64,000 nucleotides of DNA, from assembly GCA_964187785.1 (NCBI GenBank), contig OZ076409.1, positions 38,070,001 to 38,134,000 of the forward strand. The letters run 5' to 3'. How positions within the stretch are numbered: position 1 is the stretch's first letter; each line of letters opens with the position of its first letter. Source of the DNA: Amphiscolops sp. MND2022 (lineage: Eukaryota). The notes beneath the pieces were generated by a model. That model did not search any database. It worked only from the letters and a program-made list of their open reading frames with translations, and had not been told where the DNA came from. The translations under genes and the position numbers were made by a program. Below are positions 2,333 through 64,000 of the stretch, piece after piece.

Positions 2333-3370
2333 CAGTGGAGGCAAAGGTACAATCACGAGAAAGGCCGTAATGACATTGTAGAGGTAAGCAATGACGTGAA
2401 AATCACACGATAACGACCATCATTTATTTGCTTTGTACAAAAGTTGCTCAAAAGTGTTCTTTCATCAGCAATAATTCATCCTATAACGCACGCGCAAACC
2501 ACCACAGGTGATGTACAGGCCATGCTTGTTTGTTATCACCGTTCTTCCTACGAACTGCTTCGCGGTCCTCCGGAGAACGGTGATGTTATTATTTACAATT
2601 CTTCAACAAAAATGTACTGACACATTCAGTTCCAACAACTGAAGCAACAGTTCAGTATTGTCTAATTTACCTTTTGTGACCTCTGAAACCCCTTTAATTG
2701 TCACCGTAAGTGCAGAGTCACGTCTTTTTTGCGTTCAAAATGTGAAAAAGCATCGAAAAATGAGAAAATCTTTTTTTAAAAAAAAATTCGTCATTTTTAG
2801 AATTTTTGTAGAACTTTTGTAGAACTTTTTATTTTTTTATTTTTTATCCTGGCCAGGTGATGTTGAAAACACATCAACTGCACTGCTACCGCACAAGTAA
2901 ACACCATCTATTCACAAGCTCGGAAGTTATGACGCGATGACCGGAGAATTCACAATTTTCTACTACTTTTTCCCCTTCTATCTCCCAGCCTAGTGTCACC
3001 AGCCTAATGATTTTTGGCATGCAAACACCTGACATCATTTATGCCTCGCATGCAAAGTATCAGCCAATTGTACCCACGTGCTGCAGATATCGCAGCGAAA
3101 AAGTACCGAAACATGGTGAAAAAACCGATCATTTGCTCATAACTTCCCGCCAAGTAATAGGATCGTGTTTGACCAGCAGAACATCATTCGTACATCGGCA
3201 AGATAAGTACACATGCAAAGTTTCGTTACAATCCTACGGTTCAATTCGAAAATCGCCATTTTTTGACAGGTGATCTATAGGTATAAAGTTTGACACGCAA
3301 TACTTGAGCTCGCCGACGGGACCCTCCCCGGCCTCGCACTAAATTATGTGGGGAAATACCCCTGACCACC
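2333..3370 (+). mobile_element. Class A cassette, subtype A1 (1038 bp), putative non-autonomous element
   Basis: Starts CAGTGGAGGC like the A3 units. Has an internal hairpin at 2535-2584 and ends GGGACCCTCCCCGGCCTCGC...GACCACC. Mobility is inferred. Confidence 0.6.
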
Positions 3371-5586
3371 TAGCGATGGAGCGATTTAGAGCACTGCTAG
3401 TAAAAGGCCTAAACTGAACAGCGCAACCTTTGCTAATGGAGTATGAAAAAGAAATATTGAGGCTACCAATTTTTTGTAAGTTATTCTGGGATTGAACGAT
3501 AAATATCATCACCCTGACGAGTGAATGTCTATGGTGACTGCCGTCAACTTAACTCAAGGGATTTTGTGGTTTTTTGCTTTCTAAGCAAGCACCGTTGTTC
3601 CTGCGAGATGCTGCGCAACTCTCGGAACACCGGTGACAATAAATTTTGCTAATCGATTTGCAATCACCTAATCATCACTTTGAGGCATTTTTTGGCACAA
3701 CTTATGCCCTAGGGCTGTTTTGCTTGATACAGAGGGTAAACCCCAGCCCCAAAATCAGTTTCAGGTTTGCTGCAGCTGCTTCCTGTGCTGCATCATATCC
3801 AACTGAAAGTGATACAATTATTTCTCATCCAATCACTCATAATGACATATACCCCAAAAAATCAACTTTTTTCTAAGGACCCCTACAGTTGAACAACCTA
3901 TTTTTTTGGAACCCCCATTGAACGCTGACAATTTTTGCCCTTACAATTTGAGACCGTGCGGACCGTTCCTGCTGCTCAAATCAACAATTTGATCAAAGTG
4001 ATTCATTCAAAAAAATAAATTTGGCACTTTTCGGCACTTTGATTGCCCCCGGGGGGAAATTTTTTTGAACCGTTCGAAAGACCGTTGACCGTTGATGATT
4101 TTCATAAAAGTGCACTTTGCCGCTACGGGCTTTCCTTCATGGTGAAAATGGCCTTTGATTCGGTCATTGATTAATCAAAGATGAAAAAAGATGAAAAAAA
4201 CCAAAAAAACGCAAAAAACCCTACAAAATGAATTTTCCTGGAAAAACGTCAGAGGAAAAAAATTCTTAAATTTTTGAGACAAAGCCACATGCAAAGTTTC
4301 AGACAAATCCTACGGGTGAATTTCGAGATCGGTTAAAATACTTCGCAATCCTGAAGGTAGGAATTGATAGAATGTGCTCGGCTCTCGGGACCCTCCCCGG
4401 CCTCGCAATATTTTCTGATGGGCATCCCCCTTGACCACCAAGCGGTGAAAGCGATGAGTTGGGAACTCTTATAAAGTTTATAAAGTTTAATGCCAAGTAG
4501 AATGTCAAGTTCTAACCTAGCGATGGAGCGATTTAGAGCACTGCTAGTAAAAGGCCTAAACTTAACAGCGCAACCTTTGCTAATGGAGTATGAAAAAGAA
4601 ATATTGAGGCTAGCAATTTTTTGTAAGTTATTCTGGGATTGAACGATAAATATCATCACCCTGACGAGTGAATGTCTATGGTGACTGCCGTCAACTTAAC
4701 TCAAGGGATTTTGTGGTTTTTTGCTTTCTAAGCAAGCACCGTTGTTCCTGCGAGATGCTGCGCAACTCTCGGAACACCGGTGACAATAAATTTTGCTGAT
4801 CGATTTGTAATAACCTAATCATCACTTTGAGGCATTTTTTGGCACAACTTATGCCCTAGGGCTGTTTTGCTCGATACAGAGGGTAAACCCCAGTCCCATA
4901 ATCAGTTTCAAGTTTGCTGCAGCTGCTTCCTGTGCTGCATCATATCCAACTGAAAGTGATACAATTATTTCTCATCCAATCACTCATAATGACATATACC
5001 CCAAAAAATCAACGTTTTTCTGATGACTCCTACAGGTGAACGAATTACATTTTTGGAACCCCCATTGGATGCTGACAATGTTTGACCTTATTGTCCGAGA
5101 CCGTGCGGACCGTTCCGGCTGCTCAAATCATCAATTTGATCAATGTGATTCAGTCAAAAAAATAATTTTGGCACTTTTCGGCACTTTGGTTTCCCCCGGG
5201 GGGAAATTTTTTTGGACCGTTCGAAAGACCGTTGACCGTTGATGATTTTCATAAAAGTGCACTTTGCCGCTACGGGCTTTCCTTCATGGTGAAAATGGCC
5301 TTTGATTTGGTCATTGATTAATCAAAGATGAACAATGATGAAAAAACCAAAAAAACGCAAAAAAACCCTACAAAATGAATTTTCCTGGAAAAACGTCAGC
5401 AGAAAAAAATTCTTAAATTTTTAAGATGAAGCCACATGCAAAGTTTCAGACAAATCCTACGGGTGAATTTCGAGATCGGTTAAAATACTTCGCAATCCTG
5501 AAGGTAGGAATTGATAGAATGTGCTCGGCTCTCGGGACCCTCCCCGGCCTCGCAATATTTTCTGATGGGCATCCCCCTTGACCACC
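3371..5586 (+). mobile_element. Two class A2 cassettes (3371-4439 and 4518-5586, 1069 bp each) separated by a 78-bp mini-unit (4440-4517)
   Basis: Near-identical direct copies starting TAGCGATGGAGCGATTTAGAGC and ending GGGCATCCCCCTTGACCACC. Confidence 0.65.
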
Positions 5587-6856
5587 TAGCGGACAAGTTT
5601 GCGCCCTGTGGCGCTATTTGGCATACGTCGTCGAAGGGCATGCCTCGGCATGCCCACGGACGGTGGGCGTTAGTGAGAGTGTGTGGCGTTGACGTTAGGG
5701 CTGCGATGTAGTAGTAAAGTAAACGTAAACTAAAGGTAAAGTAAGATTCATGATGTCAAACATGATTCGACAAAACTATTGTATTCGTGTGCAATAGCAT
5801 CACTAGCGTCGAAAAAATACAAAATGGGCTCTATAGTACCTGACTTTTAGCGAGTACATTCTCATCTCCCCCACAAGGGGGGAGATGGAATGTACTCAAC
5901 TGTTTTGTGCTATCAGATGAACAAGACGGTATCAAAACTTATCAAAATTGGTCAAAACACTCTGAATGGTGTTGCTCCACTGCACAACGGCAATTTAACA
6001 GCTCTGTGGTTCATTGGACGTATTCTGATTACTTTTAAAAGACTTTTAGGTTTCTTTGATTTTTTCAGCACATACGAAGCTCACACTAAAATTATCATAA
6101 GTCAACGTCAGGTTAAGCTACAGAGTCGTATAATAGCTCATTTTTCTCGTCTATTCAAGCACTTTCCACATGCTATCACTTGCAATCCTAGTTGTGTGGA
6201 ACTTTCTTGACTTTAGGAGGCCTGAATTTGGAAAAAAAATTTTTTGAAATATTTAATTTTGATTAATAAGTCATTAATCTTTTACCCGGGGTTTGCTGGA
6301 ATGCTGAAACTCCGTATTTAGGGCCAAATGGTTTTGCTGGGAGGTAAACCGGCCAGGGGAGGTCTTTAGGAGAGTGTCTGAAAAAAAATCTGGGCAAAAA
6401 ACGGCAGAGATAGACTGGGATTTCAAAAAATTCCAAAAAAATGCCTCAAATTTTCAATTATTTCTCAATCAACTTTTATCCGATTTGGACGAAAATTTGT
6501 ATACGCACTCCTCATGAAGTGCCCAACAATAAATTAGCTAGGCGTTTTTGCGCTGGGTGAATCAGTTACGAGTAATTGTCTCTGAAAAAAAAATTTTCGA
6601 AAAAACGCCATTTTTTGACCAAAAAACTAAGATTTTGACCAACTTTTTGCGTTTTTTGGGCAAAATGCCAGTAGGGATTAGTTCTTAGGATTGTTATAGG
6701 AAGCCGTATGCAAAATTTGAGCAAATTCTGACGGCTAGTTTCCAAAATCACGTTTTTTCCATCTGGATTTGGTAGGAAGCTATCCCGTACTACTGGCCAT
6801 CCGGGGCCCCTCCCCCAATGGCAAAGATTTTGCTGAAAAAAAAATTTCCGGCCACC
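5587..6856 (+). mobile_element. Divergent class B cassette (1270 bp)
   Basis: Has the GGGCATGCCTCGGCATGCCC palindrome (5636-5655), the GAGTACATTC...GAATGTACTC hairpin and the central GCTGAAACTCCGTATTTAGGGCCAAATGG block. The sequence between these blocks is diverged from other B units. Confidence 0.65.
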
Positions 6857-9800
6857 CAGTGGAGGCAGGTACCAACTACCAGTAAGGCCTATTCAGACAA
6901 TACTTGATTGAAACTGAAGTTGGTGCAACTTAAAATTGTAAACTTTAATCGTTTTCATTTCACAACAAACTACCTCAAAAAAGTTATTTTTTCATCTTGA
7001 TAATTCTACCAAGCACCTCATTGGAAGCACATAAGTTGCACAGACTTTTATCGTTTGTCGCCAATCTTCCTCCGAAACGCTTCGCGTTCTCCCGGAACAT
7101 CGGCGATCTTTCTACATGTCATTTACCAACAAACATAGAATTCCAACAACTGAGAAAAGATTGCAGTAATTTGGGATTAAAACTTTAAAAGTGTAATCAT
7201 TAACCAAAAATAAAAATTAAATGTGTCAAATTCCCCTAAAAAGTCAGTGTAAGTGCTCGGGTACCTCGTTTTTGACCTCAAAATGTGAAAAAACATCAAA
7301 AAAGACGAAAAAACCTTTTTTTTGGAATAATTCTAAATTTTTCGAATTTTGGTAGAACTTTTGTAGAACTTTTTTTTGGCCAAAAAAACCAAAATTTGTT
7401 CCTCTTTCGATTAAACATAAAACCATTCATTTTTATCCATAGGCACTACCTATTCCATTGGGCACTTCGGAAGTCATGATAAAAAGTGTCAAAAAATCAC
7501 CTTTTTTGGTGTATATTTTCTATCATATTTCCCGATGTATTAGGACCTGGCCAAAAATTTTTGGCCATCTTGTAGCCCACTTCATTTGTACCTCACACAA
7601 AAAGTTTCGGCCTATTGGCTCCAATGGCTGAGGAGCAGCGACTGAAAAGATGCGAAAAATGGGTGATTTCGACATACATTTGCTCATAACTTCCGTCACA
7701 GGGTATGGAGCGAAAAGTGCCAGTAGGAAAAAGTTCTTACATTTTGATTCTATGTCCGCATGCAAAGTTTGAATAAATTCTAACGGTTCATTTTCGAGAT
7801 CGTCTCCGTAGACCCCCCCCCCCCCCCCAACATGTATATTTTTAGCAGGCTATTCTTCAAGCTCGTCACGGGACCCTACCCGGCCTCGCACTACTCTGTA
7901 AAGGTAAAACACCCGACCACCCAGTGGAGGCTGGTACCAACTACTAGTGAGGCCTCATCAACTACTACTTCAAATAAGAACGTGATGAAGATACGTCTTC
8001 ACTTTAATTTGCATTTGGATTGGTTAATGATTTGCATTGGATTAACTACTTTCAATTAACCATTTTCATCTTGACTAATTTATCCATTCACTTCATTGGG
8101 ACAACAGTGTGTTGCACAGACCTTTATTTGTTGTCGCCGTTCTTCCTTCGAATCGCTTCGCGTTCCTCCGGAACAACGCCGGTGTTGCTATTTGTCAAAA
8201 ATTCCAAAAAGTGATTGAAAATTCAAAGACGTCTGTTAAATGCTTCAGTAGTATATTCATTGAAAAAAAATGTCTCAAAATACTTCAAATAGTCAGCGTA
8301 AGTGCTCAGGTACCTCATTTTTGACCTCAAAATGTGAAAAAACATCAAAAAATACAAAAAAAACTTTTTTTTGGAAAAATTCTAAATTTTTCGAATTTTT
8401 GTAGAACTTTTGTAGAACTTTTTTTCGGCCAAAAAAACCAAAATTTTTTCCTCTTTCGATCAAACATAAAACCATTCATTTTTATCCATAGGCACTACCT
8501 CTTCCATTGGGCACTTCGGAAGTCATGATAAAAAGTGTCAAAAAATCACCTTTTTTGAAGTATATTTCCTATCATATCTCCCGTTGTATTAGGGCCTGGC
8601 CAAAAATTTTTGGCCATCTTGTAGCCCACTTCATTTGTACCTCACACAAAAAGTTTCGGCCTATTGGCTCCAATGGCTGAGGAGCAGCGACTGAAAAGAT
8701 GCGAAAAATGGGTGATTTCGACATACATTTGCTCATAACTTCCGTCACAGGGTATGGAGCGAAAAGTGCCAGTAGGAAAAAGTTCTTACATTTTGATTCT
8801 ATGTCCGCATGCAAAGTTTGAATAAATTCTAACGGTTCATTTTCGAGATCGTCTCCGTAGACCCCCCCCCCCCCCCCAACATGTATATTTTTAGCAGGCT
8901 ATTCTTCAAGCTCGTCACGGGACCCTACCCGGCCTCGCACTACTCTGTAAAGGTAAAACACCCGACCACCCAGTGGAGGCAGGTACCAACTACCAGTAAG
9001 GCCTATTCAGACAATACTTTATCGGAATTGAAGTTGGCGCAACTTACCATTGTAAACTTTAATGGTTTTCATTTAAAAAAAACATAGTTCAACAATTTAT
9101 TTTCTTCATCTTCAATATTCTACCAACCTCCTCATTGGAAGCACATGAGTTGCAAAGACCTTTATTTGTTGTCGCCGTTCTTCCTCCGAATCGCTTCGCG
9201 TTCCTCCGGAACAACGCCGGTGTTGCTATTTGTCATAAATTCCAAAAAGTGATTGAAACTTCAAAGACGTCTGTTAAATGCTTCAGTAGTATATTCATTG
9301 AAAAAAAATGTCTCAAAACACTTCAAATAGTCAGCGTAAGTGCTCAGGTACCTCATTTTTGACCTCAAAATGTGAAAAAAACATCAAAAAATACGAAAAA
9401 AACACTTTTTTTGGAAAAATTCTAAATTTTTCGAATTTTTGTAGAACTTTTGTAGAACTTTTTTTTCGGCCAAAAAAACCAAAATTTTTTCCTCTTTCGA
9501 TCAAACATAAAACCATTCATTTTTATCCATAGGCACTACCTATTCCATTGGGCACTTCGGAAGTCATGATAAAAAGTGTCAAAAAATCACCTTTTTTGGT
9601 GTATATTTTCTATCATATCTCCCGTTGTATTAGGACCTGGCCAAAAATTTTTGGCAATCTTGTAGCCCACTTCATTTGTACCTCACACAAAATGTTTCGG
9701 CCTTTTGGCCCCAATGGCTGAGGAGCAGCGACTGAAAAGATGCGAAAAATGGGTGATTTCGACATACATTTGCTCATAACTTCCGTCACAGGGTATGGAG

Positions 9801-10003
9801 CGAAAAGTGCCATTAGGAAAAAGTTCTTACATTTTGATTCTATGTCCGCATGCAAAGTTTGAATAAATTCTAACGGTTCATTTTCGAGATCGTCTCCGTA
9901 GACCCCCCCCAACATGTATATTTTTAGCAGGCTATTCTTCAAGCTCGTCACGGGACCCTACCCGGCCTCGCACTACTCTATGACGGTAAAACACCCGACC
10001 ACC
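6857..10003 (+). mobile_element. Three class A3 cassettes (6857-7921, 7922-8970, 8971-10003)
   Basis: Direct repeats of 1065, 1049 and 1033 bp. They start CAGTGGAGGC(A/T)GGTACCAAC and end GGGACCCTACCCGGCCTCGC...ACACCCGACCACC. Confidence 0.65.
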
Positions 10004-10045
10004 TAGGCTAACGCGTTAACGCATATCTTGGTATACGTCGTCGAA

Positions 10046-10065
10046 GGGCATGCCTCGGCATGCCC
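10046..10065. promoter_or_regulatory. Near-invariant palindrome GGGCATGCCTCGGCATGCCC (representative of 39 copies); matches the p53-family response element consensus at 19/20
   Basis: Perfect 9-bp inverted repeat. GGGCATGCCT fits RRRCWWGYYY and CGGCATGCCC fits 9/10, with no spacer. The palindrome is seen directly; its function is inferred. Confidence 0.5.
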
Positions 10066-10271
10066 ACGGACGGGGGGCGTTGATAAATATGGGGGCGTTG
10101 ATATAAAAGAATTGTTGTTGTGAGCAACTTGGTATTAAAAGGCACGTGCTGATTTTTCGGCATATCCAGACAGATTACCAAGATATAACTCTATGAAAAT
10201 GTCGGAACCAATATGTAATCCTTATACTGCGTAGCTCGGGAAGGTAAGGGCCGTAGTTCGGTGCTTTTTGC

Positions 10272-10315
10272 GAGTACATTCTCATCTCCCCCGGAAGGGG
10301 GGATGGAATGTACTC
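10272..10315. other. Class B internal 44-nt hairpin GAGTACATTC-TCATCTCCC..GGG(G/A)GATG-GAATGTACTC (representative)
   Basis: Perfect 10-bp outer inverted repeat plus an inner stem. Present in the B units even where the flanks diverge. Confidence 0.85.
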
Positions 10316-11231
10316 AACTGTTTCAAGTTATTTGATGAGAAAAAAATGAATAAATACACAAAATTTTTTTATTATAACAACAAAAAAGTATGTCAAACGA
10401 CAACAAAGGGTGTTGATTGATTGCCAAACTGCCATGAATTACGTTCTGAGCAAACCATATTGCATCTCAATGGCTTTCAGATCAGATAAAGACTCATAAC
10501 GTTTACTATTCACGTGCTTTACACCTCCAAACATCACCTTCAAAACGTCATAAGTCAACGTTGAGCCAAGATAAAAAGACGTTCTAAACGGCATTTTTCT
10601 CCTCTAAACAAGGGCTTTGCACATGCATTCACTTGCTTTACTGGTTTGGGGGTCTTTTCCCCCACTTTGGGGGCCCAAATAACGGAAAAAAAATTTTTTG
10701 AAAATTTTTGAAATTTTCTAAGTCCCACAACTTTTCGCCCGGGAATGCTGGAACGCTGAAACTCCGTATTTAGGGCCAAATGGTTTTGCTGGGAATAAAA
10801 CCGGCCAGGGGAGGCCTTTAGGCGAGTGCATTTTCGAAAAAATGGCAAAGATAAGCTGGACCGTTAGAAAAATGAAACCCCCCCGCTCCGGAAAAACGCT
10901 ATATCTCCTCGAGTTTAAGTCCGATTGAGCTGAAAATTTCACACAGCATTCCTGAGACAGTTTGCAAACTTTCGTCAGCAAGGTTTGGAAGCGCTAGCGT
11001 GCACCCGTGGCGAGATATGAGATGAAATTTAAAAAAAGTTGAAAATTTTACCCCAAAAACCGTTATTTTGGTCAACAAAAAATGTTTAGCGAGCAAAACG
11101 TCAGTAGGGAATCATCTTCACCGTGCCGAGGGGGGTACGTGTGCCAAATTTCAGCCAAATCGTATGGCTAGTTTACGAGATCCCAATTTTTTATGTCGTT
11201 TTCATCGGTTGAAAGACCCGATACCACGGAA

Positions 11232-11296
11232 GCGCGTCAGGGACCCTCCCCAACCGCGCAACTTCCCCCATTGTGTAAAAAAACACCGGCACCTAG
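11232..11296 (+). other. Representative cassette junction (putative recombination or integration site): GCGCG..GGGACCCTCCCC..CGCGC hairpin, about 30 nt, then CACC|TAG
   Basis: The architecture is shared by all three classes. In the junctions I measured, the GGRNCCC motif starts 50-54 nt before the crossover. Confidence 0.75.
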
Positions 11297-14200
11297 CAGC
11301 TACCGCGCTAACGCATATTTTGGTGCGGGTCGTCGAAGGGCATGCCTCGGCATGCCCACGGACGGGGGGCGTTGATAAATATGGGGGCGTTGATATAAAA
11401 TAATTGTCGTTGTGAGCAACTTGGTATTAAAAGGCACGTGCTGATTTTTCGGCATATCCAGACAGATTACCAAGATATAACTCTATGAAAATGTCGGAAC
11501 CAATATGTAATCCTTATACTGCGTAGCTCGGGAAGGTAAGGGCCGTAGTTCGGTGCTTTTTGCGAGTACATTCTCATCTCCCCCGGAAGGGGGGGATGGA
11601 ATGTACTCAACTGTTCCAAGTTATTTGATGAGAAAAAAATGAATAAATACACAAAATTTTCTATTATAAAAACAAAAAAGTATGTCAAACGACAACAAAG
11701 GGTGTTGATTGATTGCCAAACTGCCATGAATTACGTTTTGAGCAAACCATATTGCATCTCAATGGCTTTCAGTTCAGATAAATACTCATAACGTTTACTA
11801 TTCACGTGCTTTACACCTCCAAACATCACCTTCAAAACGTCATAAGTCAACGTTGAGCCAAGATAAAAAGACGTTCTAAACGGCATTTTTCTCGTCCAAA
11901 CAAGGGCTTTGCACATGCATTCACTTGCTTTACTGGTTGGGGGGTCTTTTCCCCCACTTTGGGGGCCCAAATAACGGAAAAAAAATTTTTGAAAATTTTT
12001 GAAATTTTTCAAGTCCCACAACTTTTCGCCCGGGAATGCTGGAACGCTGAAACTCCGTATTTAGGGCCAAATGGTTTTGCTGGGAATAAAACCGGCCAGG
12101 GGAGGCCTTTAGGCGAGTGCATTTTCGAAAAAATGGCAAAGATAAGCTTGACCGTTAGAAAAATGAAACCCCCCCGCTCCGGAAAAACGCTATATCTCCT
12201 CGAGTTTAAGTCGGATTGAGCTGAAAATTTCACACAGCATTCCTGAGACAGTTTGCAAACTTTCGTCAGCAAGGTTTGGAAGCGCTAGCGTGTACCCGTG
12301 GCGAGATATAAGATGAAATTTAAAAAAAGTTGAAAATTTTACCCCAAAAACCGTTATTTTGGTCAACAAAAAATGTTTAGCGAGCAAAACGTCAGTAGGG
12401 AATCATCTTCACCGTGCCGAGGGGGGTACGTGTGCCAAGTTTCAGCCAAATCGTACGGCTAGTTTTCGAGATCCCAAAATTTTTGATGGGTACGTAAAGG
12501 TTAAAAAATCCGAAATCCCGGGAGCGCGTCAGGGACCCTCCCCACACGCGCAACATCCCCCTTTGTGTAAAAAAACACCGGCACCTAGCGGGGAAAGACT
12601 GCGTGGCACTGGGCATTTGGCATACGTCGTCGAAGGGCATGCCTCGGCATGCCCACGGACGATGGGGCGTTGATGCAAGCAGGGGGCGTTGACGTTAGAG
12701 ATGTATGGTGGTAGTAGTAGGAGCAAGTAATGTACTTCATGTTAATTATTGTTTTAAAAAATCAAGTAATTAAAAATAACTTTTTTCAAAGCATAGAAAA
12801 CTTCCCATCCAAACATTGGCGCCATAGCATTAGGTTTTTAGCGAGTACATTCTCATCTCCCCCGAAAGGGAGATGAAATGTACTCAACTGCTTGATGTTA
12901 AAAGATGAGATAAATTGGAATAAATACATAAAAACAGTTATTATATAGAAGAAAAAAATACTCAAATGACATCAAAGTGTACTAATACTCTGCTAACCTA
13001 CAATGAAAATCGTTTTTAGCAAAACTGCTTGTATCTCAATGGTTTTCCGATGAGATAAAGACTCAAAACTTCAACTTTTAACATGCTTCATATATCCTAA
13101 CATCACATTCAAAACGTCATAAGTCAATGTCAAGTTAAGATAAAAAGATGTGCTAAACGGCATTTTTCTCCTCCAAACATGGGCGTTCCACATGAATTCA
13201 CTCAAAATACTGGTTGGGGGGTCGTTCCCCTTCATTGGGGGCCCGGAAAACGGGAAAAAATTTTTTTTAAAAATTTTGATATTTTTCCAAGTCCCACAAC
13301 TTTCCGCCCCGGAATGCTGGAACGCTGAAACTCCGTATTTAGGGCCAAATGGGTTTGCTGGGAGTAAATTCGGCCAGGGGGAGGCCTTTAGGCATGTACA
13401 TTTTCCAAAAAATGGCAAAGATAAGCTGGACCGTTAAAAAATTTACCCCGGAAACGCCCAAAAAACCGTTAATTTCTCGCCAAGTTTCAGTCCGATTTGA
13501 ACCAAAATTTGTCCACGCACTCCTCCAACAGCGCTGAGCAATATTGACGTCCACGTGCGGAACGCTACGGGCACCTGGAAATGAGATATTGGCTGACAAA
13601 CTTGAAAAAAGTGCATTTTTGTCATTTTTGGGTCCGTTATTTGCCCATATCTCCTCTCACAGTGGAATTTGGGAAAAATTACCTCCTACACGTTTTACCT
13701 ACTCACCAATTCCAGGCCACATGCCAAATTTCAGAAAAATCGTATGGCTCAAACTATGAGATCTCGTAGAATTCTGCACGTTTCGGTGAGCATCCAATTC
13801 TTCTAGGTCGTCGCGGGGCCCTACCCACTCCTCGATGCAAAAGCACGTCGAAAAGACACGGCCACCTAGGCTAACGCGCTCGAACATATCTTGGTATACG
13901 TCGTCGAAGGGCATGCCTCGGCATGCCCACGGACGGGGGGCGTTGATAAATATGGGGGCGTTGATATAAAATAAATGTCGTTGTGAGCAACTTGGTATAA
14001 AAAAGCACGTGCTGGTTTTTCTGCATACCCAGACAGATTACCAAGATATAACTCTATCAAAATGTCGGAACCAATATGCAATCTTTATACTGCGTAGCTC
14101 AGGAAGGTAAGGGCCGTAGTTCGGGGCTTTTTGCGAGTACATTCTCATCTCCCCCGTGAAGGGGGGATGGAATGTACTCAACTGTTTCAAGTTATTTGAT

Positions 14201-32000: not shown

Positions 32001-32098
32001 GGGTACGTAAAGGTTAAAAAATCCGAAATCCCGGGAGCGCGTCAGGGACCCTCCCCACACGCGCAACTTCCCCCATTGTGTAAAAAAACACCGGCACC
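23083..32098 (+). mobile_element. Seven class B cassettes
   Basis: Units start at 23083, 24375, 25669, 26940, 28231, 29518 and 30809, with lengths 1271-1294 bp. Confidence 0.7.
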
Positions 32099-53100: not shown

Positions 53101-53623
53101 ATTTAGGGCCAAATGGTTTTGCTGGGAATAAAACCGGCCAGGGGAGGCCTTTAGGCGAGTGCATTTTCGAAAAAATGGCAAAGATAAGCTGGACCGTTAG
53201 AAAAATGAAACCCCCCCGCTCCGGAAAAACGCTCTATCTCCCCGAGTTTAAGTCCGATTGAGCTGAAAATTTCACACCGCATTCCTGAGACAGTTTGCAA
53301 GCTTTCTTTAGCAGGGTTTTGAAGCGCTAGCGTAAACCGGTGGCGAGATATAAGATAAAAATTAAAAAAAATTCAAAATTTTCCACCAAAAACCGTTATT
53401 TTGGACAACAAAAAAAATTTTGCGAGCAAAACACTAGTAGGAAATCATCTTCACCATGCCGAGGGGAGTACGTGTGCCAAATTTCAGCCAAATCGTGTGG
53501 CTAGTTTAGGAGATCCCGAAAAATCGACCCCTATTTCCTAGCTGGTGAACACCATACCCAAGAGCGCGCCAGGGACCCTACCCACACGCGCCACATACTT
53601 TATCGAATAGAAATCCCGGCACC
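47200..53623 (+). mobile_element. Five class B cassettes
   Basis: Units start at 47200, 48489, 49761, 51048 and 52339. Units 49761 and 52339 are the same subtype as 13867. Confidence 0.7.
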
Positions 53624-55595
53624 TAGCCCGGGATGTACGGGCGTCGTTAGGTATGTATTTGGTATACATCGTCGAAGGGCATGCCTCGGCATGCCCACAG
53701 ACGGTGGGCGTTGATGTAAAGTGTGTGGCGTTGACGTTAATTAAACTATGTTATGAAGTTTTAGCTTGAATAATGAAACGTAATAATCAATTTGAACTTT
53801 TATTACCTGTTATATACAATTCAATCAATACCATTTGTTTGGTAAAGAAGTTTTCTGGCTTTTAGAACACATTTGAAATGTAAAAAATTAATTTTATCAA
53901 CAGTTTGTTAACTACTATTCTAATAACGGAATCATCACGACGTAGTTTTTGTCGTTGGCAAACTTTTCTTGAAGCTCTAATTGATTCTAAATTGATACAA
54001 ACATACCCAAAAACACACTTGATTAACGATTATTGAAGGATAGCCCCTCCAAGTTGACACCAGGCCAACTTGAAAGGCTATCATAAAGTAACGGTTATGT
54101 TGGTTGAGGTTTCGGAGTCTCTGAAACTATATGGAAAAACTTTAATTTTTAAAAATAGTCCATAATAGTCAACAAAAGTACGCCGAAAGACATTTTAAAA
54201 CCAAAAAACCTATCCTGTCTCCAACGGTTTGGACTTCCGGTGCTATATACCGTTACCCCCCGTAAGGTTTCATGACTATGTTCACTACTGCAGACCGTCG
54301 AAACACCTAATAGGTACTTTTATTCATAAAACACCAAACATTTGTACTCAATAGACACAAAATTTGACCATTTCCGGTCGTTTACGGTACCAGGGGGACT
54401 TTGGGGTCAACATAACGGTTATTTCCGAATGCTCGCCTCACGTCCTCCCTTGCCTCATATAGTGTCCAAGCACCTATTACCACTCCTTCCGCACCTAATT
54501 GCCCTTCAAAAAGCACAAAAATCGCAATTTTACCCACATAACGGTCATTTCCGGTCACAAGGGGTAACGGGGGGTGACTGAAACTATATCCCCCAACTCG
54601 TCTCATTGAGTACTACAATAAGTTACCTAACGATGCCGCGCTCGGACTGACCCTTTGGGCTCAAAAAGTGACATTTCCGGTAACATAGCGGTTAGGCTGG
54701 GGGGCCAAGTCGGTAACGGTGATAGATAGCGGAAATCTGTTTGCCCCCCTGAAGGCACCATATGATGGGCATGAAACCTTGTAGTAGTGAAGGACACGAT
54801 TGCTCCACGCGTTCACGAGATATTTACCCCTCAATGCCCATTTTACGGTTTTAGCAGTAAAAAAAGGAGGCGGAAGCGCCATTTCCCGCTAACGGGTTGG
54901 TCCAGGGGGTCCCAAACCACATGTTTCCGATAGGTCCTTGTCTAAACCTACTTTTGATATATGACACCCGACGCGCTAATCCCACTCCTTCACACCGGAA
55001 ATAGCGGTAAAACGTGGAGGGGGGCATTTTTCACGCTCATATAACGGTCATTTCCCGTCCGGGGGGTAAATTGAGGTTGGCAAACTACTTGTCCCCCACT
55101 TCGTCTCAAGGCCGTCCCCAATACATCACCTAACGACCCCGCGCTCAGACGACTCCTTCCGGGTCAAAAACCTGCGTTTCCGGAAAAATAACGGTTTGAG
55201 CGGGGGGGGTACTTGGAGATAGCTTCAAGATAGAAAATTTTGGTTTGGACCTTCGGGGCCCCTGCAACACGGTCAAGAAACTTTTAGCAGGGTTCCAAAG
55301 TTTTTAATCAACAGAAAAAAAGTTATGTGGCCCAATATGAATTTTACCCCTAAAATGACCCCCTAACGGTCGCCCGTGTGGCCAGAAAAAAATTTTCCGG
55401 GGTATGGAACCCGGTGGGGGGCGCTAATTTTCGGAAAATCTGGTGGGGGCCGCTCCAACTTTAAAATCCTATGGTTAGATCACGAGATCCCGAAATTTTT
55501 GCAAGATTTCCTATCGATAGCTATTAGAGTTAAAATCGGATTCAGGACCCTACCCGAATCCTCCAATATATTTGTTGGGGTTTCCCCCCCGCACC
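53624..55595 (+). mobile_element. Class C1 cassette (1972 bp), isolated among B units
   Basis: Starts TAGCCCGGGATGTACGGGCG like 17147-19115 and has the same end type. Confidence 0.7.
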
Positions 55596-58500
55596 TAGCT
55601 GCTACCGCGCTCCAGGTATATCTTGGTATACGTCGTCGAAGGGCATGCCTCGGCATGCCCACGGACGGTGGGCGTTGATGCAAGTAGGGGGGCGCTGACG
55701 TTAGAGATGAGTTGTGGTATGCTGAGTTTCAAAGTAAGTAAGAAACGTTCATTTTGTCGAGTCACAGAGGGCAAAAAGAAGTTTTCTGCGACAAACTGAA
55801 ACCATTTGCAATCCCTTTTGTGTTGTGGAAGATATAGTCCGTAGTTCCTGACCTTTAGCGAGTACATTCTCATCTCCCCCGGGAAGGGAGATGGAATGTA
55901 CTCAACTGTTTCAAGTTATTTGATGAGAAAAAAATGAATAAATACACAAAAAAATTGTTATTATAGAAACGAAAATTACGTGAAAAGACACCAAAGGGTG
56001 ATAATGGACAGCGAAACTGCAATGAAACACGTTTTGAGCAAAACATGTTGTATCTCAATGGCTTTCAGATGGGATAAATACTCAAAACATCAATTTTCCG
56101 TATCTAACGGTCACCTTCAAAACGACAAAAGTCAATGTCAAGTTACGATAAAAAGACGTTCTAAACGGCATTTTTCTCGTTTAAACAAGGGCTTTCCACA
56201 TGCATTCACTTGCTTTACTGGTTGGGGGGTCTTTTCCCCCACTTTGAGGGCCCAAATAACGGAAAAATTTTTTTTTGAAAATTTTTGAACTTTTCTAAGT
56301 CCCACAACTTTTCGCCCGGGAATGCTGGAACGCTGAAACTCCGTATTTAGGGCCAAATGGTTTTGTTGGGAATAAAACCGGCCAGGGGAGGCCTTTAGGC
56401 GATTGCATTTTCGAAAAAATGGCAAAGATAAGCTGGACCGTTAGAAAAATGAAACCCCCCCGCTCCGGAAAAACGCTATATCTCCTCGAGTTTAAGTCCG
56501 ATTGAGCTGAAAATTTCACACAGCATTCCTGAGACAGTTTGCAAACTTTCGTCAGCAAGGTTTGGAAGCGCTAGCGTGTACCCGTGGCGAGATATAAGAT
56601 GAAATTTAAAAAAAGTTGAAAATTTTACCCCAAAAACCGTTATTTTGGTCAACAAAAAATGTTTAGCGGGAAAAACGTCAGTAGGGAATCATCTTCACCG
56701 TGCCGAGGGGGGTACGTGTGCCAAATTTCAGCCAAATCGTATGGCTAGTTTACGAGATCCCAATTTTTTGTCGCGTTTTCATCGGTTGAAAGACCCGATA
56801 CCACGGAAGCGCGTCAGGGACCCTCCCCAACCGCGCAACTTCCCCCATTGTGTAAAAAAACACCGGCACCTAGCCGCTACCGCGCTTGGGAGTATATTTT
56901 GGTGCGGGTCGTCGAAGGGCATGCCTCGGCATGCCCACGGACGGGGGGCGTTGATAAATATGGGGGCGTTGATATAAAATAATTGTCGTTGTGAGCAACT
57001 TGGTATAAAAAGGCACGTGCTGATTTTTCTGCATATCCAGACAGATTACCAAGATATAACTCTATCAAAATGTCGAAACCAATATGCAATCTTTATACTG
57101 CGTAGCTCGGGAAGGTAAGGGCCATAGTTCGGGGCTTTTTGCGAGTACATTCTCATCTCCCCCGGGAAGGGAGATGGAATGTACTCAACTGTTTCAAGTT
57201 ATTTGATGAGAAAAAAATAAATAAATACACAAAATTTTTTATTATATCAACAAAAAAATATGTAAAACGACAACAAAGGGTGTTGATTGACTGCCAAACT
57301 GAAATGAATTACGTTTTGGGCAAATCAGATTGCATCTGAATGGCTTTCAGATCAAATAAATACTCATAACGTTTACTTTTCACGTGCTTCACACCTCTTT
57401 ACATCACCTTCAAAACGTCATAAGTCAACGTTGAGTAAAGATAAAAAGACGTTCTAAACGACATTTTTCTCCTCTAAACAAGCGCTTTGCACATGCATTC
57501 ACTCAAAATACTGGTTGGGGGGTCCTTTCCCCCACATTGGGGGCCCAAATAACGGAAAAAAATTTTTTGAAACTTTTTGAAATTTTCTAAGTCCCACAAC
57601 TTTTCGCCCGGAAATGCTAGAACGCTGAAACCCCGTATTTAGGGCCAAATGGTTTTTTTGGGAGTAAAACCGGCCAGGGGAGGCCTTTAGGCGAGTGCAT
57701 TTTCGAAAAAATGGCAAAGATACGCTGGACCGTTAGAAAAATGAAACCCCCCCGCTCCGGAAAAACGCTATATCTCCTCGAGTTTAAGTCCGATTGAGCT
57801 GAAAATTTCACACCGCATTCCTGAGACAGTTTGCAAACTTTCGTCAGCAAGGTTTTGAAGCGCTAGCGTAAACCTGGGGCGAGATATAAGATGAAATTTA
57901 AAAAAAGTTGAAAATTTTCCACCAAAAACCGTTATTTTGGTCAACAAAAAATGTTTAGCGGGCAAAACGTCAGTAGGGAATCATCTTCACCGTGCCGAGG
58001 GGGGTACGTGTGCCAAATTTCAGCCAAATCGTATGGATAGTTTACGAGATCGGAGATAACTGGGGTGTGAATTTGGAGTAGGAAAACCGAAAACACAGGA
58101 GCGCGCCAGGGGCCCTACCCACACGCGCAGAATTCCTTATCGAATGGAAATCCCGGCACCTAGCTGCTACCGCGCTCGGGGCATATTTTGGTGCACGTCG
58201 TCGAAGGGCATGCCTCGGCATGCCCACGGACGGGGGGCGTTGATTTTTGTGGGGGGCGTTGATTTAAATTAATTGTCGTTGCGAGCAACTTGGTATAAAA
58301 TGGCACGTGCTGATTTTTCTGCAAATCCAGACATATTACCAAGATACAACTCCATTAAAATGTCTGGACCATTATGTTATCTTTATACTGCGTATCTCGG
58401 GAAGGTATGGGCCGTAGTTCGCGGCTTTTTGCGAGTACATTCTCATCTCCCCCGGGAAGGGAGATGGAATGTACTCAACTGTTTCAAGTAAAAATATAAG

Positions 58501-61500
58501 AAAAAAAAATTAATGGAAAGTAAGAAAAGTAATCAAAATTTATTAATTTTCAGGAGAAAAGTTTTTTAAACAGAGTAAAAAGACACCAAAATGCGTTTAA
58601 ACGATACCAAACTATTAGAAACCACGCTCTGGGCTTCACAGCGTGTGATTCAATGACTTTCTGATGAAATAAAATCAAAAAAATTCCTTTTTTTACATGC
58701 TTCACACGTCCAAACATCACCTTTAAAGCTTCATAAGTCAATGTCAGGTTGAGATATAAAGACGTTCTAAACGGCAATTTTTTCGTCTAAACATGGCCTT
58801 TCCACATGAATTCACTCAAATTACTGGTTGGGGGGTCTTTTCCCCTAGGGGGGGAGGGCGGAAAACGGAAAAAAAAAATTTTTGAAAATTTTTGAATTTT
58901 TCTAAGTCCCACAACTTTTCGCCCGGGAATGCTGGAACGCTGAAACTCCGTATTTAGGGCCAAATGGTTTTGCTGGGAATAAAACCGGCCAGGGGAGGTC
59001 TTTAGGCGAGTACATTTTCGAAAAAATGGCAAAGATAAGCTGGACCGTTAGAAAAATGAAACCCCCCCGCTCCGGAAAAACGCTATATCTCCCCGAGTTT
59101 AAGTCCGATTGAGCTGAAAATTTCACACCGCATTCCTGAGACAGTTTGCAAGCTTTCTTTAGCAGGGTTTTGAAGCGCTAGCGTAAACCGGTGGCGAGAT
59201 ATAAGATAAAATTTAAAAAAAATTCAAAATTTTACCCCAAAAACCGTTATTTTGGACAACAAAAAAAATTTTGCGGGAAAAACGTCAGTAGGAAATCATC
59301 TTCACCGTGCCGAGGGGAGTACGTGTGCCAAATTTCAGCCAAATCGTGTGGCTAGTTTACGAGATCCCGAAAAATCGACCCCTATTTCCTAGCTGGTGAA
59401 CACCATACCCAAGAGCGCGCCAGGGACCCTACCCACACGCGCCACATACTTTATCGAATAGAAATCCCGGCACCTAGCGGCTACCGCGCTCGGGAGCATA
59501 TTTTGGTATACGTCGTCGAAGGGCATGCCTCGGCATGCCCACGGACGGTGGGCGTTGATGTGAACTATGGGGCGTTGACGTAAAAGAGATGGCGTTGTTA
59601 AGATACTTGATATAAAAGAGCACGTGCGGCATTTTCTTCATTTCCAGTCAAATTACAAAGATAAAATTATGTCAAAATATCTGGATCAAAACGCAATTTT
59701 TATGGGGCGTTGCTCGGGGAAGGTAAGTACTGTAGTACCTGGTCTCTAAAGAGTACATTCTCATCTCCCCCGTGAAGGGAGATGGAATGTACTCAACTGT
59801 TTCGAGTCATGAGATCAGAAAAAAAATGTGAATAATTATAAATAATTTTTGATTTTAGTCGGAAAATTTTTTTAAAACAGAGTCAAAAGACACAAAAAAG
59901 TGTTGATGCATTGCTAAATTAGAATTAAACACGTTCTGAGTCACACACCGTGTATCTCAATGACTTTTAGAAGAGCTAAAGACACAATAAATTACCTTTT
60001 CACATGCTTCACACATCCAAACATCACCTTCAAAACAACATAAGTCAACGACAGGTTAAAATAAAAAGACAATCTAAACGGCATTTTTCTTCTCTAAACA
60101 TGGCCTTTCCACATGAATTCACTCAAATTACTGGTTGGGGGGTCTTTTCCCCTCGGGGGGGAGGGCGGAAAACGGAAAAAAATTTTTTGAAAAATTTTGA
60201 AATTTTTCTAAGTCCCACAACTTTTCGCCCGGGAATGCTGGAACGCTGAAACTCCGTATTTAGGGCCAAATGGTTTTGCTGGGATTAAAACCGGCCAGGG
60301 GAGGCCTTTAGGCGAGTGCATTTTCGAAAAAATGGCAAAGATAAGCTGGACCGTTAGAAAAATGAAACCCCCCCCGCTCCGGAAAAACGCTATATCTCCT
60401 CGAGTTTAAGTCCGATTGAGCTGAAAATTTCACACCGCATTCCTGAGACAGTTTGCAAACTTTCGTCAGCAAGGTTTGGAAGCGCTAGCGTGTACCCGTG
60501 GCGAGATATAAGATGAAGTTTAAAAAAAGTTGAAAATTTTACCCCAAAAACCGTTATTTTGGTCAACAAAAAATGTTTAGCGGGAAAAACGTCAGTAGGG
60601 AATCATCTTCACCGTGCCGAGGGGGGTACGTGTGACAAATTTCAGCCAAATCGTATGGCTAGTTTACGAGATCCCAATTTTTTATGTCGTTTTCATCGGT
60701 TGAAAGACCCGATACCACGGAAGCGCGTCAGGGACCCTCCCCAACCGCGCAACATCCCCCATTGTGTAAAAAAACACCGGCACCTAGCGGCTACCGCGTT
60801 CGAATATATTTTGCTATACGTCGTCGAAGGGCATGCCTCGGCATGCCCACGGACGGGGGGCGTTGATGTGTGTGGGGGGCGTTGACGTTAGAGATGAGTT
60901 GTGGTATGGTGAGATTCAAAGTAAGTAAGAAACGTTCACTTTGTCGAGTCACAGAGTGCAAAAAGAAGTTTTCTGCGACAAACTGAAACAATTTGCAATC
61001 TCTTTTGTGTTGTGGAAGATATAGACCGTAGTTCCTGACCTTTAGCGAGTACATTCTCATCTCCCCCGGGAAGGGAGATGGAATGTACTCAACTGTTTCA
61101 AGTTATTTGATGAGAAAAAAATGAATAAATACACAAAGAAATTGTTATTATAGAAAAAAAAATTACGTCAAAAGACACCAAAGGGTGTTAATGGACAGCG
61201 AAACTGCAATGAAACACGTTTTGAGCAAAACATGTTGTATCTCAATGGCTTTCAGATGGGATAAACACTCAAAACATCAATTTTCCGTATCTAACGGTCA
61301 CCTTCAAAACGACAAAAGTCAATGTCAAGTTACAATAAAAAAACGTTCTAAACGCCATTTTTCTCGTCTAAACAAGGGCTTTCCACATGCATTCACTTGC
61401 TTTACTGGTTGGGGGGTCTTTTGCCCCACTTTGGGGGCCCAAATAACGGAAAAAATTTTTTTGAAAATTTTTGAAATTTTCTAAGTCCCACAACTTTTCG

Positions 61501-64000
61501 CCCGGGAATGCTGGAACGCTGAAACTCCGTATTTAGGGCCAAATGGTTTTGCTGGGAATAAAACCGGCCAGGGGAGGCCTTTAGGCGAGTGCATTTTCGA
61601 AAAAATGGCAAAGATAAGCTGGACCGTTAGAAAAATGAAACCCCCCCGCTCCGGAAAAACGCTATATCTCCTCGAGTTTAAGTCCGATTGGGCTGAAATT
61701 TTCACACCGCATTCCTGAGACAGTTTGTAAACTTTCGTCAGCAAGGTTTTGAAGCGCTAGCGTAAACCTGGGGCGAGATATAAGATGAAATTTAAAAAAA
61801 GTTGAAAATTTTCCACCAAAAACCGTTATTTTGGTCAACAAAAAATGTTTAGCGGGCAAAACGTCAGTAGGGAATCATCTTCACCGTGCCGAGGGGGGTA
61901 CGTGTGCCAAATTTCAGCCAAATCGTGTGGCTAGTTTACGAGATCGTCGAAATCACATCGTGAATTTGGAGTAGGTGTACCCGAAATAAAAGAGCGCGCC
62001 AGGGGCCCTACCCACACGCGCCACATACTCGAACGAATAGTAATCCCGGCACCTAGCGAAAATGACTGCGTGGCACTGGGCATTTGGCATACGTCGTCGA
62101 AGGGCATGCCTCGGCATGCCCACGGACGGTGGGCGTTGATGCAAGCAGGGGGGCGTTGACGTTGGAGGTGGATTGTAGTAGTAAAGTCAAGTAATGTATT
62201 TCAAGTATATGAATTTTTAAAAAATTCCGAAAAAATACAAAAACAAGTCTGTAAGAAGATAAAAAACGCGGGTTTCAAACTTTTGGTCATGGCGCTGGGT
62301 CTTTAGCGAGTACATTCTCATCTCCCCCGAAAGGGAGATGAAATGTACTCAACTGTTTTGAGTTATAAGATGATAAAAATTGGAATAAATACATTAAAAT
62401 TGTTAATATATCGACGAAAAGTATGTTTATATGACACCAAAGGGTATTGGTGCACTGGAAAATTACAACGAAAGACGTTTTGAGCAGGACAGCTTGCATC
62501 TCAACCGCTTTCATATGAGATAAAGACTCAAAACATCAACTTTTCACATGCCTCCTACATCCTTACATCACATTCAAAACGTCATAAGTCAACGTTGAGT
62601 CAAGATAAAAAGATGTTCTAAACGGTATTTTTCTCGTCAAAACAAGGGCTTTTGACATGCATTCACTCAAATTACTGGTTGGGGGGTCGTTTCCCCTTCA
62701 TTGGGGGCCCGGAAAACGAAAAAAAAATTTTTGAAAATTTTTGAAAATTTTCCAAGTCCCACAACTTTTCGCCCGGGAATGCTGGAACGCTGAAACTCCG
62801 TATTTAGGGCCAAATGGTTTTGCTGGGAGTAAATTCGGCCAGGGGGAGGCCTTTAGGCGAGTACATTTTCGAAAAAATGGCAAAGATAAGCTGGACCGTT
62901 AGAAAAGGTTCCCCAAAAATACCGTTATTTCTCCAAGACTACAAGTCCGATCGGAACGGGCCCAAGTTCACCGTACAGCCTCAACACCCTAGAGTTTATA
63001 TTCAGCTTAACGCGTCCCGCTCCGGGCACCTGGGAACGAGATATGGGCTGACAAAGTTGAAAAAAGTGCATTTTTGCCATTTTTGGGACCGTTATTTGCC
63101 CATATCTCCTCTCACAGTGGAATTTGGGAAAAATCACCTCCTACACGTTTTACCTACTCACCAATTCCAGGCCACATGCCAAATTTCAGAAAAATCGTAT
63201 GGCTCAAACTATGAGATCTCGTAGAATTCTGCACGTTTCGGTGAGCATCCAATTCTTCTAGGTCGTCGCGGGGCCCTACCCACTCCTCGATGCAAAAGCA
63301 CGTCGAAAAGACACGGCCACCTAGGCTAACGCGTTAACGCATATCTTGGTATACGTCGTCGAAGGGCATGCCTCGGCATGCCCACGGACGGGGGGCGTTG
63401 ATAAATATGGGGGCGTTGATATAAAATAATTGTCGTTGTAAGCAACTTGGTATTAAAAGGCACGTGCTGATTTTTCTGCATATCCAGACAGATTACCAAG
63501 ATTTAACTCTATGAAAATGTCGGAACCAATATGTAATCCTTATACTGCGTAGCTCGGGAAGGTAAGGGCCGTAGTTCGGTGCTTTTTGCGAGTACATTCT
63601 CATCTCCCCCGGAAGGGGGGATGGAATGTACTCAACTGTTTCAAGTTATTTGATGAGAAAAAAATGAATAAATACACAAAATTTTTTATTATAACAACAA
63701 AAAAATATGTCAAACGACAACAAAGGGTGTTGATTGATTGCCAAACTGCCATGAATTACGTTCTGAGCAAACCATATTGCATCTCAATGGCTTTCAGATC
63801 AGATAAATACTCATAACGTTTACTATTCACGTGCTTTACACCTCCAAACATCACCTTCAAAACGTCATAAGTCAACGTTGAGCCAAGATAAAAAGACGTT
63901 CTAAACGGCATTTTTCTCCTCTAAACAAGGGCTTTGCACATGCATTCACTTGCTTTACTGGTTTGGGGGTCTTTTCCCCCACTTTGGGGGCCCAAATAAC
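55596..64000 (+). mobile_element. Six class B cassettes plus a partial seventh running off the window
   Basis: Units start at 55596, 56871, 58161, 59475, 60785, 62054 and 63322 (partial). Confidence 0.7.

Follow-up and report, generated by a model that had tools for sequence, protein, structure and literature searches.

Several described systems bear comparison with the locus reported here. The Helitron-like element (HLE) Helraiser forms circles whose two ends are joined exactly to each other and has A^T as its target (PMC4778049, PMC5876387), proto-Helentrons have a 5′ stem-loop and a 3′ CTAG (PMC11417382), and Replitrons carry a Y1 Rep without a helicase together with short terminal direct repeats (PMC10288648). 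Paramecium Helitrons form a third HLE clade that targets telomeric repeats, its copies being flanked by those repeats (PMC13085455). Head-to-tail tandem Helitron arrays are known from plants, bats and Drosophila, and autonomous and non-autonomous copies cluster, including at Meloidogyne centromeres (PMC5148889, PMC5876387, PMC13404089). HELIANO reported that one HLE2 family of a moss, which has inverted repeats and T^T sites, carries a GIY-YIG domain, and listed unclassified HLEs from 19 genomes, some of them of marine animals (PMC11417382). Among prokaryotic and viral systems, IS91 inserts at a tetranucleotide target (PMC10288648), and TrwC and adeno-associated virus (AAV) Rep, which combine HUH and helicase, integrate into sites resembling their own origin (PMC6049929, PMC5714925). 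Here we analysed a 64,000-nt stretch of the Amphiscolops sp. MND2022 assembly (1.07 Gb, eukaryotic), positions 38,070,001–38,134,000 of contig OZ076409.1 (C1). This stretch, hereafter the window, is occupied by an array of non-coding units that we assign to rolling-circle transposons.

The window units are almost certainly non-autonomous Helitron-like rolling-circle elements on the minus strand, with the structure 5′-GTG…CTRG-3′. For the whole model, which adds that new copies integrate preferentially at resident junctions, we estimate a probability of about 0.7. With more reserve, we lean towards a wider formulation: an undescribed deep Helitron-like clade, marked by a Rep-helicase with an SLX1-like GIY-YIG domain and with hundreds of relatives in public data, whose rolling-circle transposition has become origin-targeted integration at its own junctions. 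Dozens of its autonomous and non-autonomous families would stack singly into one-orientation arrays of up to megabases; the elements would thereby build their own safe haven, and a eukaryotic genome would have a cassette-array equivalent driven by an HUH enzyme.

A pattern scan of the window found 45 junctions of the form CACC|[CTA]AG with an upstream GGRNCCC, and no CACC[ACT]AG in these 64 kb lacked that upstream motif. The junctions delimit 44 complete units of 1,033–1,147, 1,268–1,318 and 1,969–2,017 bp. The number and sizes given in the original prediction therefore stand, but its three classes resolve into nine families when clustered at 80% identity. It was likewise right that the units join at one fixed site behind a GGRNCCC hairpin; the cut itself lies one base to the left of the proposed (C)ACC|YAG, at CAC|CYAG on the plus strand, which is CTRG|GTG on the element (minus) strand, and 44 of 44 window units start with GTG. 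None of 1,145 matches in a self-BLAST of the window was on the minus strand, so all window units share one orientation, as had been proposed. No open reading frame (ORF) in the window exceeds 148 aa among the 55 of at least 100 aa, which were not scanned against Pfam, and tRNA and Rfam scans of the window gave no matches. The features are as follows.

1–2331, minus strand: 5′ part of a family-45 unit (4,902 bp, non-coding) that runs beyond the window
2332–3369, minus strand: unit 1, family 39, 1,038 bp, GTG…CTGG
3370–4438, minus strand: unit 2, family 43, 1,069 bp, GTG…CTAG
4439–4516, minus strand: 78-bp spacer inside what had been called unit 3, starting GT and ending CTTG on the element strand
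4517–5585, minus strand: second family-43 element, 1,069 bp, the body of that unit 3
5586–6855, minus strand: unit 4, family 20, 1,270 bp
6856–10002, minus strand: units 5–7, family 38, 1,033–1,065 bp, mutual identity 86–91%
10003–15152, minus strand: units 8–11, families 24, 24, 18 and 24, 1,281–1,292 bp
10046–10065, no strand: example of the palindrome 45–60 nt from the 3′ end
15153–23081, minus strand: units 12–15, family 6, 1,969–1,993 bp, mutual identity 81–92%
19058–19081, minus strand: example of the 5′ subterminal hairpin (the GGRNCCC motif), with loop TAGGGT at 19067–19072, element positions 43–48
19111–19118, minus strand: example junction CTAG^GTGC, where unit 14 (3′ end) meets unit 13 (5′ end); the cut falls between 19115 and 19114
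23082–32097, minus strand: units 16–22, family 24, 1,271–1,294 bp, mixed subfamilies
32098–47198, minus strand: units 23–32, families 5, 23, 24, 24, 5, 24, 24, 23, 24 and 5
47199–63320, minus strand: units 33–44, families 24 (five units), 6, 24 (three units), 23, 24 and 18
63321–64000, minus strand: 3′ part of a further family-24 unit

The spacer at 4439–4516 runs counter to the claim that no DNA separates the units; both of its ends are valid targets, and it has no match in the fetched loci. The array extends past the window on both sides. On the right it runs for about another 39 kb to its upstream edge (in terms of the element strand), where the non-array flank ends in CTTG, and on the other side the last unit seen, near C1:37.908 Mb, is followed by GT; the roughly 265 kb in between were partly read. 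Degenerate internal repeats of about 363 bp, at 332–1329 and in the 4.9-kb units of two other loci (L006, L008), recall the tandem repeats of non-autonomous Helentrons. Just past the 3′ edge of the array, three long ORFs (L011:2067–7170) resemble, to judge from their motifs, a long terminal repeat (LTR) retrotransposon of BEL/Pao type.

In all, the stretches read contain 199 complete units of 46 families, 1.0–17 kb long. All start with GTG, and their 3′ ends are CTAG (161 units), CTGG (35), CTTG (2) or CTCG (1). All 45 5′-end types, that of the metagenome locus L151 described below included, have a hairpin about 42 nt from the 5′ end; its loop is of the (T/G)AGGG(T/C) type and in most of them occupies positions 41–46. 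The outer stem of the hairpin pairs at 5.49 of 9 positions within families against 4.67 of 9 when arms are swapped (0 of 2,000 shuffles). Canonical Helitrons (HLE1) have a short hairpin just before the 3′ end; here a palindrome 45–60 nt from that end is strong in the 1.3- and 2-kb families, and weak or absent in the 1.05-kb families and in autonomous copies of the C10 type.

The target was read from 16 solo or nested sites with both flanks, as C (13), T (15), A7 C4 T4 G1 and G (14) before the cut and G9 A5 T2 and T (16) after it, giving the consensus YTNG^DT without target-site duplication. This set leaves out L093 (left flank TTTC) and the nested L110 (TTCA); the rest of the 46 edge loci lack a clear 5′ end or lie in arrays. 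Three copies of a repeat that we take to be a short interspersed element (SINE)-like sequence provide empty counterparts to the filled site L140 and confirm the cut without duplication. At C8:25,691,400–25,694,100 (L097, L098), an intact and a doubly interrupted B-type unit can be compared, and the empty site again shows no duplication; the two insertions used internal CTTG^GT and CTGG^GT sites 13 bp apart, which shows that nested insertion can occur. The predicted absence of target-site duplications is thus borne out. Three 5′-truncated solos (L092, L112, L114) have a precise 3′ end and an 11–13 nt repeat of the 3′ flank upstream, which may reflect a different resolution of the 5′ joint.

Each unit's own 3′ end followed by the next 5′ start matches YTNG^DT, so each junction is itself a perfect target. 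For one 3′-end class, the next bases are GTG at 1,219 of 1,265 ends, GT[ACT] at 19 and A, C or T at 27 (controls 0, 0 and 3). Ends without the final G, and those with GG[ACG] next, are not part of these counts, an omission to be set against our model. The pattern left the second base free in the 27 ends followed by A, C or T, and it is T in 25. Counted from 5′ ends, 4,038 sites are CTRG^GTG and 51 CTYG^GTG. Target-like sites inside the window units number 70 on the same strand and 133 on the opposite strand, and 0 of these 203 is used.

Comparison of near-identical units suggests that they arrived singly. In 129 of the 173 pairs that are at least 97% identical, the two units have no neighbour in common; in 13 they have both in common. 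Where the neighbours belong to different families, the identity of about 100% within the unit gives way to background at the 5′ junction, past the shared CTRG (102 pairs), and to a low level past the GTG (143 pairs). Three family-5 units starting at 32099, 37992 and 45185 are 98.5–99.2% identical to one another and have three different next starts, exactly as the original prediction had quoted them. Blocks of two units shared at ≥98% were found 24 times among the 199 units, all of them same-family dimers, and no mixed-family block was shared. No adjacent pair in the window (0/43) reaches 97% identity, and with the 1.05-kb block set aside, the association of end types in the window is z = 4.8 within units and 1.1 across junctions. 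Near-identical units with unrelated neighbours, and similarity that ends at the junction, favour one-at-a-time integration over tandem amplification, and these statistics fit the earlier proposal that units integrate site-specifically at each other's ends. The match of an incoming unit to its 5′ or its 3′ neighbour gave no discrimination (z = 4.9 and 4.3). The order in the window, which had been described as shuffled, is not fully random: 21 of 43 adjacent pairs are of one family.

The autonomous partner was found directly in the arrays. A search with the Helitron_like_N profile returned many weak partial matches, concentrated in array regions and lying within frames of about 2,375 aa, and all 12 of the long-ORF copies fetched lie between array junctions as 12–17 kb units with the same ends, the ORF running on the strand that reads CTRG|GTG at the junction. 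This agrees with the suggestion that the window units are non-autonomous and have longer coding counterparts. The encoded Rep-helicase (RepHel) contains PF14214 and PF05970 (above cut-off in both array subfamilies scanned) and a C-terminal PF01541, and is thus a Y2-HUH Rep and a Pif1 helicase with a fused SLX1-like GIY-YIG nuclease. The Rep motifs FVTFTCN, EFQ...HYH and RYLTSY and the Walker A motif GPPGTGKT are present; RepHel matches the Helraiser structure 7LCC with E = 1e-26, and among solved structures SLX1 is closest to the GIY-YIG domain (E = 6e-14). Three RepHel subfamilies with about 30% mutual identity use one common junction. Two autonomous copies that are 99.6% identical have different neighbours on both sides.

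The non-coding families share 5′ regions with the autonomous copies in the fetched loci. Family 2 matches them at 96–97% identity across 900 bp of its 5′ end and at 99% in its 3′ end, and bases 107–767 of unit 4 in the window are 84% identical to their 5′ region. The 4.9-kb units were considered as autonomous elements and rejected, as they have no ORF longer than about 120 aa.

A second ORF of the autonomous copies (ORF2, about 340 aa) has no match in Pfam or Protein Data Bank (PDB) sequence searches. Its model, built from 14 sequences with a predicted local distance difference test (pLDDT) score of 72, matches the oligonucleotide/oligosaccharide-binding (OB) folds of RPA and LEF-3 (E = 3e-5 to 1e-3, with low template-modelling scores), so ORF2 is a predicted OB-fold protein. 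An Atlas search gave only leads below 0.9 for ORF2 and none for the RepHel N-terminus. One autonomous copy has a third ORF of 256 aa without a Pfam match between RepHel and ORF2 (L055:1453–2220). At L063:4372, also between RepHel and ORF2, contigs from two RNA runs of one seawater sample terminate loosely in poly(A), which weakly suggests that a relative's transcript ends there.

Arrays of this kind are widespread in the genome. The strict junction pattern has 4,038 matches genome-wide and its reversed control none, so that chance does not account for them; the pattern catches 185 of the 216 junctions in the stretches read, which implies about 4,700 junctions in total. Arrays recur on at least seven large contigs, and short arrays of two and three units are found here and there in host DNA (L133, L146). 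Searching for Rep returned 135 matches, of which 63 (by hand count) have stop-free frames of at least 2,100 aa. At C1 70.5–76.5 Mb, 34 Rep matches, all on the plus strand, occur with dense junctions over about 6 Mb, a cluster that could be pericentromeric. RepHel strand mostly switches from minus to plus once per cluster, near 102.7 Mb in C2:102.0–103.9 Mb and near 2.6 Mb in C3:2.4–3.9 Mb, so that each of these two clusters consists of two arrays facing apart near a contig end; a smaller switch lies at C1:23.98 Mb.

Relatives of the Rep region comprise 724 representatives at E ≤ 0.001 and 158 at 1e-30, some of which may come from the same organism. Among 18 RepHel homologues scanned, 15 have GIY-YIG; DUF6570 and an apurinic/apyrimidinic (AP) endonuclease were absent from all 18 and from two RepHels of this genome, in scans that found DUF6570 in the control. 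Some relatives (P0035, P0183, P0192, P0194) carry an OTU protease domain besides RepHel. Placement rests on an unrooted Rep tree (38 rows, 278 columns), from which 6 of 26 homologues had been dropped by motif pattern and in which HLE labels for this genome's own sequences come from Pfam scores, with no published reference rows. It separates 14 HLE1- and HLE2-type sequences of this genome from four array copies plus 20 homologues with an ultrafast bootstrap (UFBoot) value of 100, and 8 HLE1-type sequences form their own clade (UFBoot 100). In this tree the array transposase lies outside the HLE1- and HLE2-type Helitrons of this genome, and it probably represents a separate clade.

One unrelated 4.9-kb metagenome contig (L151), the only locus from one metagenome scan, encodes a Rep 37% identical to that of the arrays and has CTGG^GTG with the same hairpin upstream of the ORF; the end signal is therefore not confined to this genome. 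Contigs from runs of other samples (7–12% of query words) include sequences related to the ORF and to the unit ends, with no usable joint, and scans of viral contigs with two distant homologues gave no matches.

From known Helitron biology, the transposase would nick CTRG^GTG, peel off one strand up to the next CTRG, circularise it and join it to a nicked target, with the donor regenerated. The copy-out route would be that of Helraiser, with the target read more strictly, and the choice of target would parallel that of TrwC and AAV Rep, which go into origin-like sites (PMC6049929, PMC5714925). A resident junction, made of CTRG^GTG and the 5′ hairpin, resembles the origin on a donor circle and would, by this mimicry, be bound and nicked far more readily than bare CTNG^DT, making it the preferred landing site; circle formation, recognition of the hairpin and preference for junctions at each event are the steps that we infer. 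New copies of any family would then land between two old units, one at a time, and a rare solo insertion would seed a mixed, single-orientation chain, with same-family runs and recombination inside related bodies contributing a lesser part. The GIY-YIG domain might, speculatively, trim branched integration intermediates. The earlier suggestion that units excise as circles is replaced in this mechanism, as Helitrons copy out and regenerate the donor (PMC5876387).

Several observations weigh against this model. No circle, de novo insertion or presence/absence polymorphism at a junction was observed. Neighbours are not independent: end types are associated across junctions (z = 5.9, 150 pairs), compared with z = 22 within units. 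Families occur in zones with same-family runs (families 18 and 43), and overall 63 of 182 adjacent pairs are of the same family and 12 of 182 are at least 97% identical. Six of 27 B-type window units are internal mosaics, which points to recombination inside bodies. For most of the 1.05-kb and 4.9-kb families, similarity to the fetched autonomous copies is weak or absent, and L151 gives the end signal without showing array membership. Of four broken-frame RepHel copies checked, one is at a junction and three, without an upstream 5′ end or junction, look like decayed solos, so survival bias may add to the share of copies in arrays.

Some of these points are what would be expected if insertion followed the motif CTNG^DT alone, with arrays beginning as chance double insertions and then lengthening through rolling-circle concatemers, read-through past the 3′ ends of several units, and unequal crossing-over, while solos decay or are lost. 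The same-family runs with their near-identical adjacent pairs, the mosaics and the decayed solo RepHel copies fit this alternative, and Helitron read-through and tandem arrays are documented (PMC4778049, PMC5876387). We nevertheless regard it as unlikely. Among the 199 units, two-unit blocks shared at ≥98% are never of mixed family, and 46 families and three transposase subfamilies of about 30% identity all meet at the junction. Target-like sites also dwarf the roughly 4,700 junctions: there are 610 inside units of the stretches read and 4.7 per kb at non-array loci (105 kb around other Helitrons, a non-random sample), and few nested insertions were seen elsewhere, without a systematic count.

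Still less probable is targeting of a chromatin domain, such as pericentromeric or other heterochromatin, or growth from one end, with the motif setting the exact base and the 5′ hairpin giving no signal. The large single-orientation clusters on C1 (70.5–76.5 Mb, with its 34 plus-strand Rep matches) and near the ends of C2 and C3, and the family zones, are compatible with it, as are the centromeric Helitron clusters of Meloidogyne (PMC13404089) and telomeric-repeat targeting in Paramecium (PMC13085455). Under such targeting, internal sites on both strands should be in use, whereas none of the 203 in the window is; moreover, two- and three-unit arrays stand at scattered host sites, and the order of family zones differs between arrays.

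The original prediction had offered both HUH rolling-circle and integron- or Crypton-like mechanisms, and only the former holds up. Excision of circles by a tyrosine recombinase and reinsertion at a common site would likewise produce exact, duplication-free joins between units that share an orientation and lie in shuffled order, yet it is very improbable here. A genome search for Phage_integrase (PF00589) gave four weak matches, none at loci where arrays were found (DUF3504 and serine recombinases were not searched); with no tyrosine recombinase found, the array is not an integron. Every long coding unit examined carries RepHel, and the ends and the empty-site signature fit rolling-circle elements. 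At C3:2,083,091–2,085,292 (L017–L019), three Phage_integrase-like matches 993 bp apart lie in one 1,055-aa frame, an odd recombinase-like tandem. An assembly artefact that shuffled collapsed repeats is hardly credible: unit order does rest on the assembly without read evidence, but neighbouring units differ by more than 3%, joins are base-exact, arrays recur on at least seven large contigs, and solo copies with empty sites confirm the ends.

If integration is indeed targeted to junctions, a eukaryotic DNA transposon makes its own integration site, and long, satellite-like but heterogeneous arrays could arise without unequal crossing-over or concatemers. This would also explain how many intact transposases persist cheaply. 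The elements would add a branch to Helitron classification and would link the 3′ CTRR of Helitrons to an actual target motif, in the manner of bacterial HUH systems. How Helitrons choose their targets, still an open question, would become directly testable with natural intact genes, and an enzyme able to stack units of 1–17 kb at one short, defined site, leaving no duplication, might also find use as a landing-pad tool.

Compared with known systems, the array elements are most like HLE1 and Helraiser in the Y2-HUH Rep–Pif1 fusion, the 3′ CTRR (196 of 199 units end in CTAG or CTGG), the lack of target duplication, the downstream gene for a predicted OB-fold single-stranded DNA-binding protein and the existence of non-autonomous derivatives. 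They differ in the 5′ GTG (TC in HLE1), the target YTNG^DT (A^T in HLE1), the hairpin at the 5′ end, the fused GIY-YIG and the separate Rep branch, and membership in HLE1 was rejected on the 5′ end, the target and the split in the Rep tree. Helraiser insertions are dispersed, without clustering near donors, whereas the array units are clustered. With HLE2 (Helentron, Helitron2, proto-Helentron and HLE2-reverse) the elements share a RepHel of more than 2,300 aa with a C-terminal nuclease, and an OTU domain in some relatives; a stem-loop at the 5′ end and a 3′ CTAG are points in common with proto-Helentrons (PMC11417382). They have neither DUF6570 and the AP endonuclease nor the 12–16 nt terminal inverted repeats and T^T target of HLE2, and fall outside the HLE2-type branch; the longest repeat between a family's own ends is 6–11 nt (46 families) against 7–10 nt between ends of different families. 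On domains, inverted repeats and target, HLE2 was likewise rejected, as were Replitrons, given a Y2 Rep with fused Pif1 and the ends GTG and CTRG.

The third HLE clade, that of Paramecium, is the closest conceptual match and may be related. Its copies are flanked by telomeric repeats, whereas the flanks of array units are other units or varied host DNA, and the text and supplements searched contain no mention of GIY (PMC13085455). The unclassified HLEs of HELIANO might include the array clade (PMC11417382). Known tandem Helitron arrays are ascribed, in the passages seen, to rolling-circle concatemers or to HLE1 between satellite blocks; here, by contrast, dozens of families abut and neighbours are rarely near-identical. 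IS91, TrwC and AAV Rep are prokaryotic or viral, and multi-family chromosomal arrays are not reported for them in the passages seen. The likeness to integrons is one of layout only, mixed units in one orientation at one site: the array has no tyrosine recombinase or gene cassettes, the units copy out instead of being excised, and the catalyst is itself an array unit. The target form CTTG^AT presumably resembles the nick sites of IS91, phiX174 and pC194. In the literature searched, which excluded most subscription journals, Repbase and Dfam, neither this clade nor Helitron arrays of many families targeted to junctions are described; tandem arrays of Helitrons are known in themselves, and it is the multi-family junction-targeted layout for which no description was found. 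The system is real and is not an integron; it is a new Helitron-like variant, probably a separate clade, and integration at its own junctions accounts best for its arrays.

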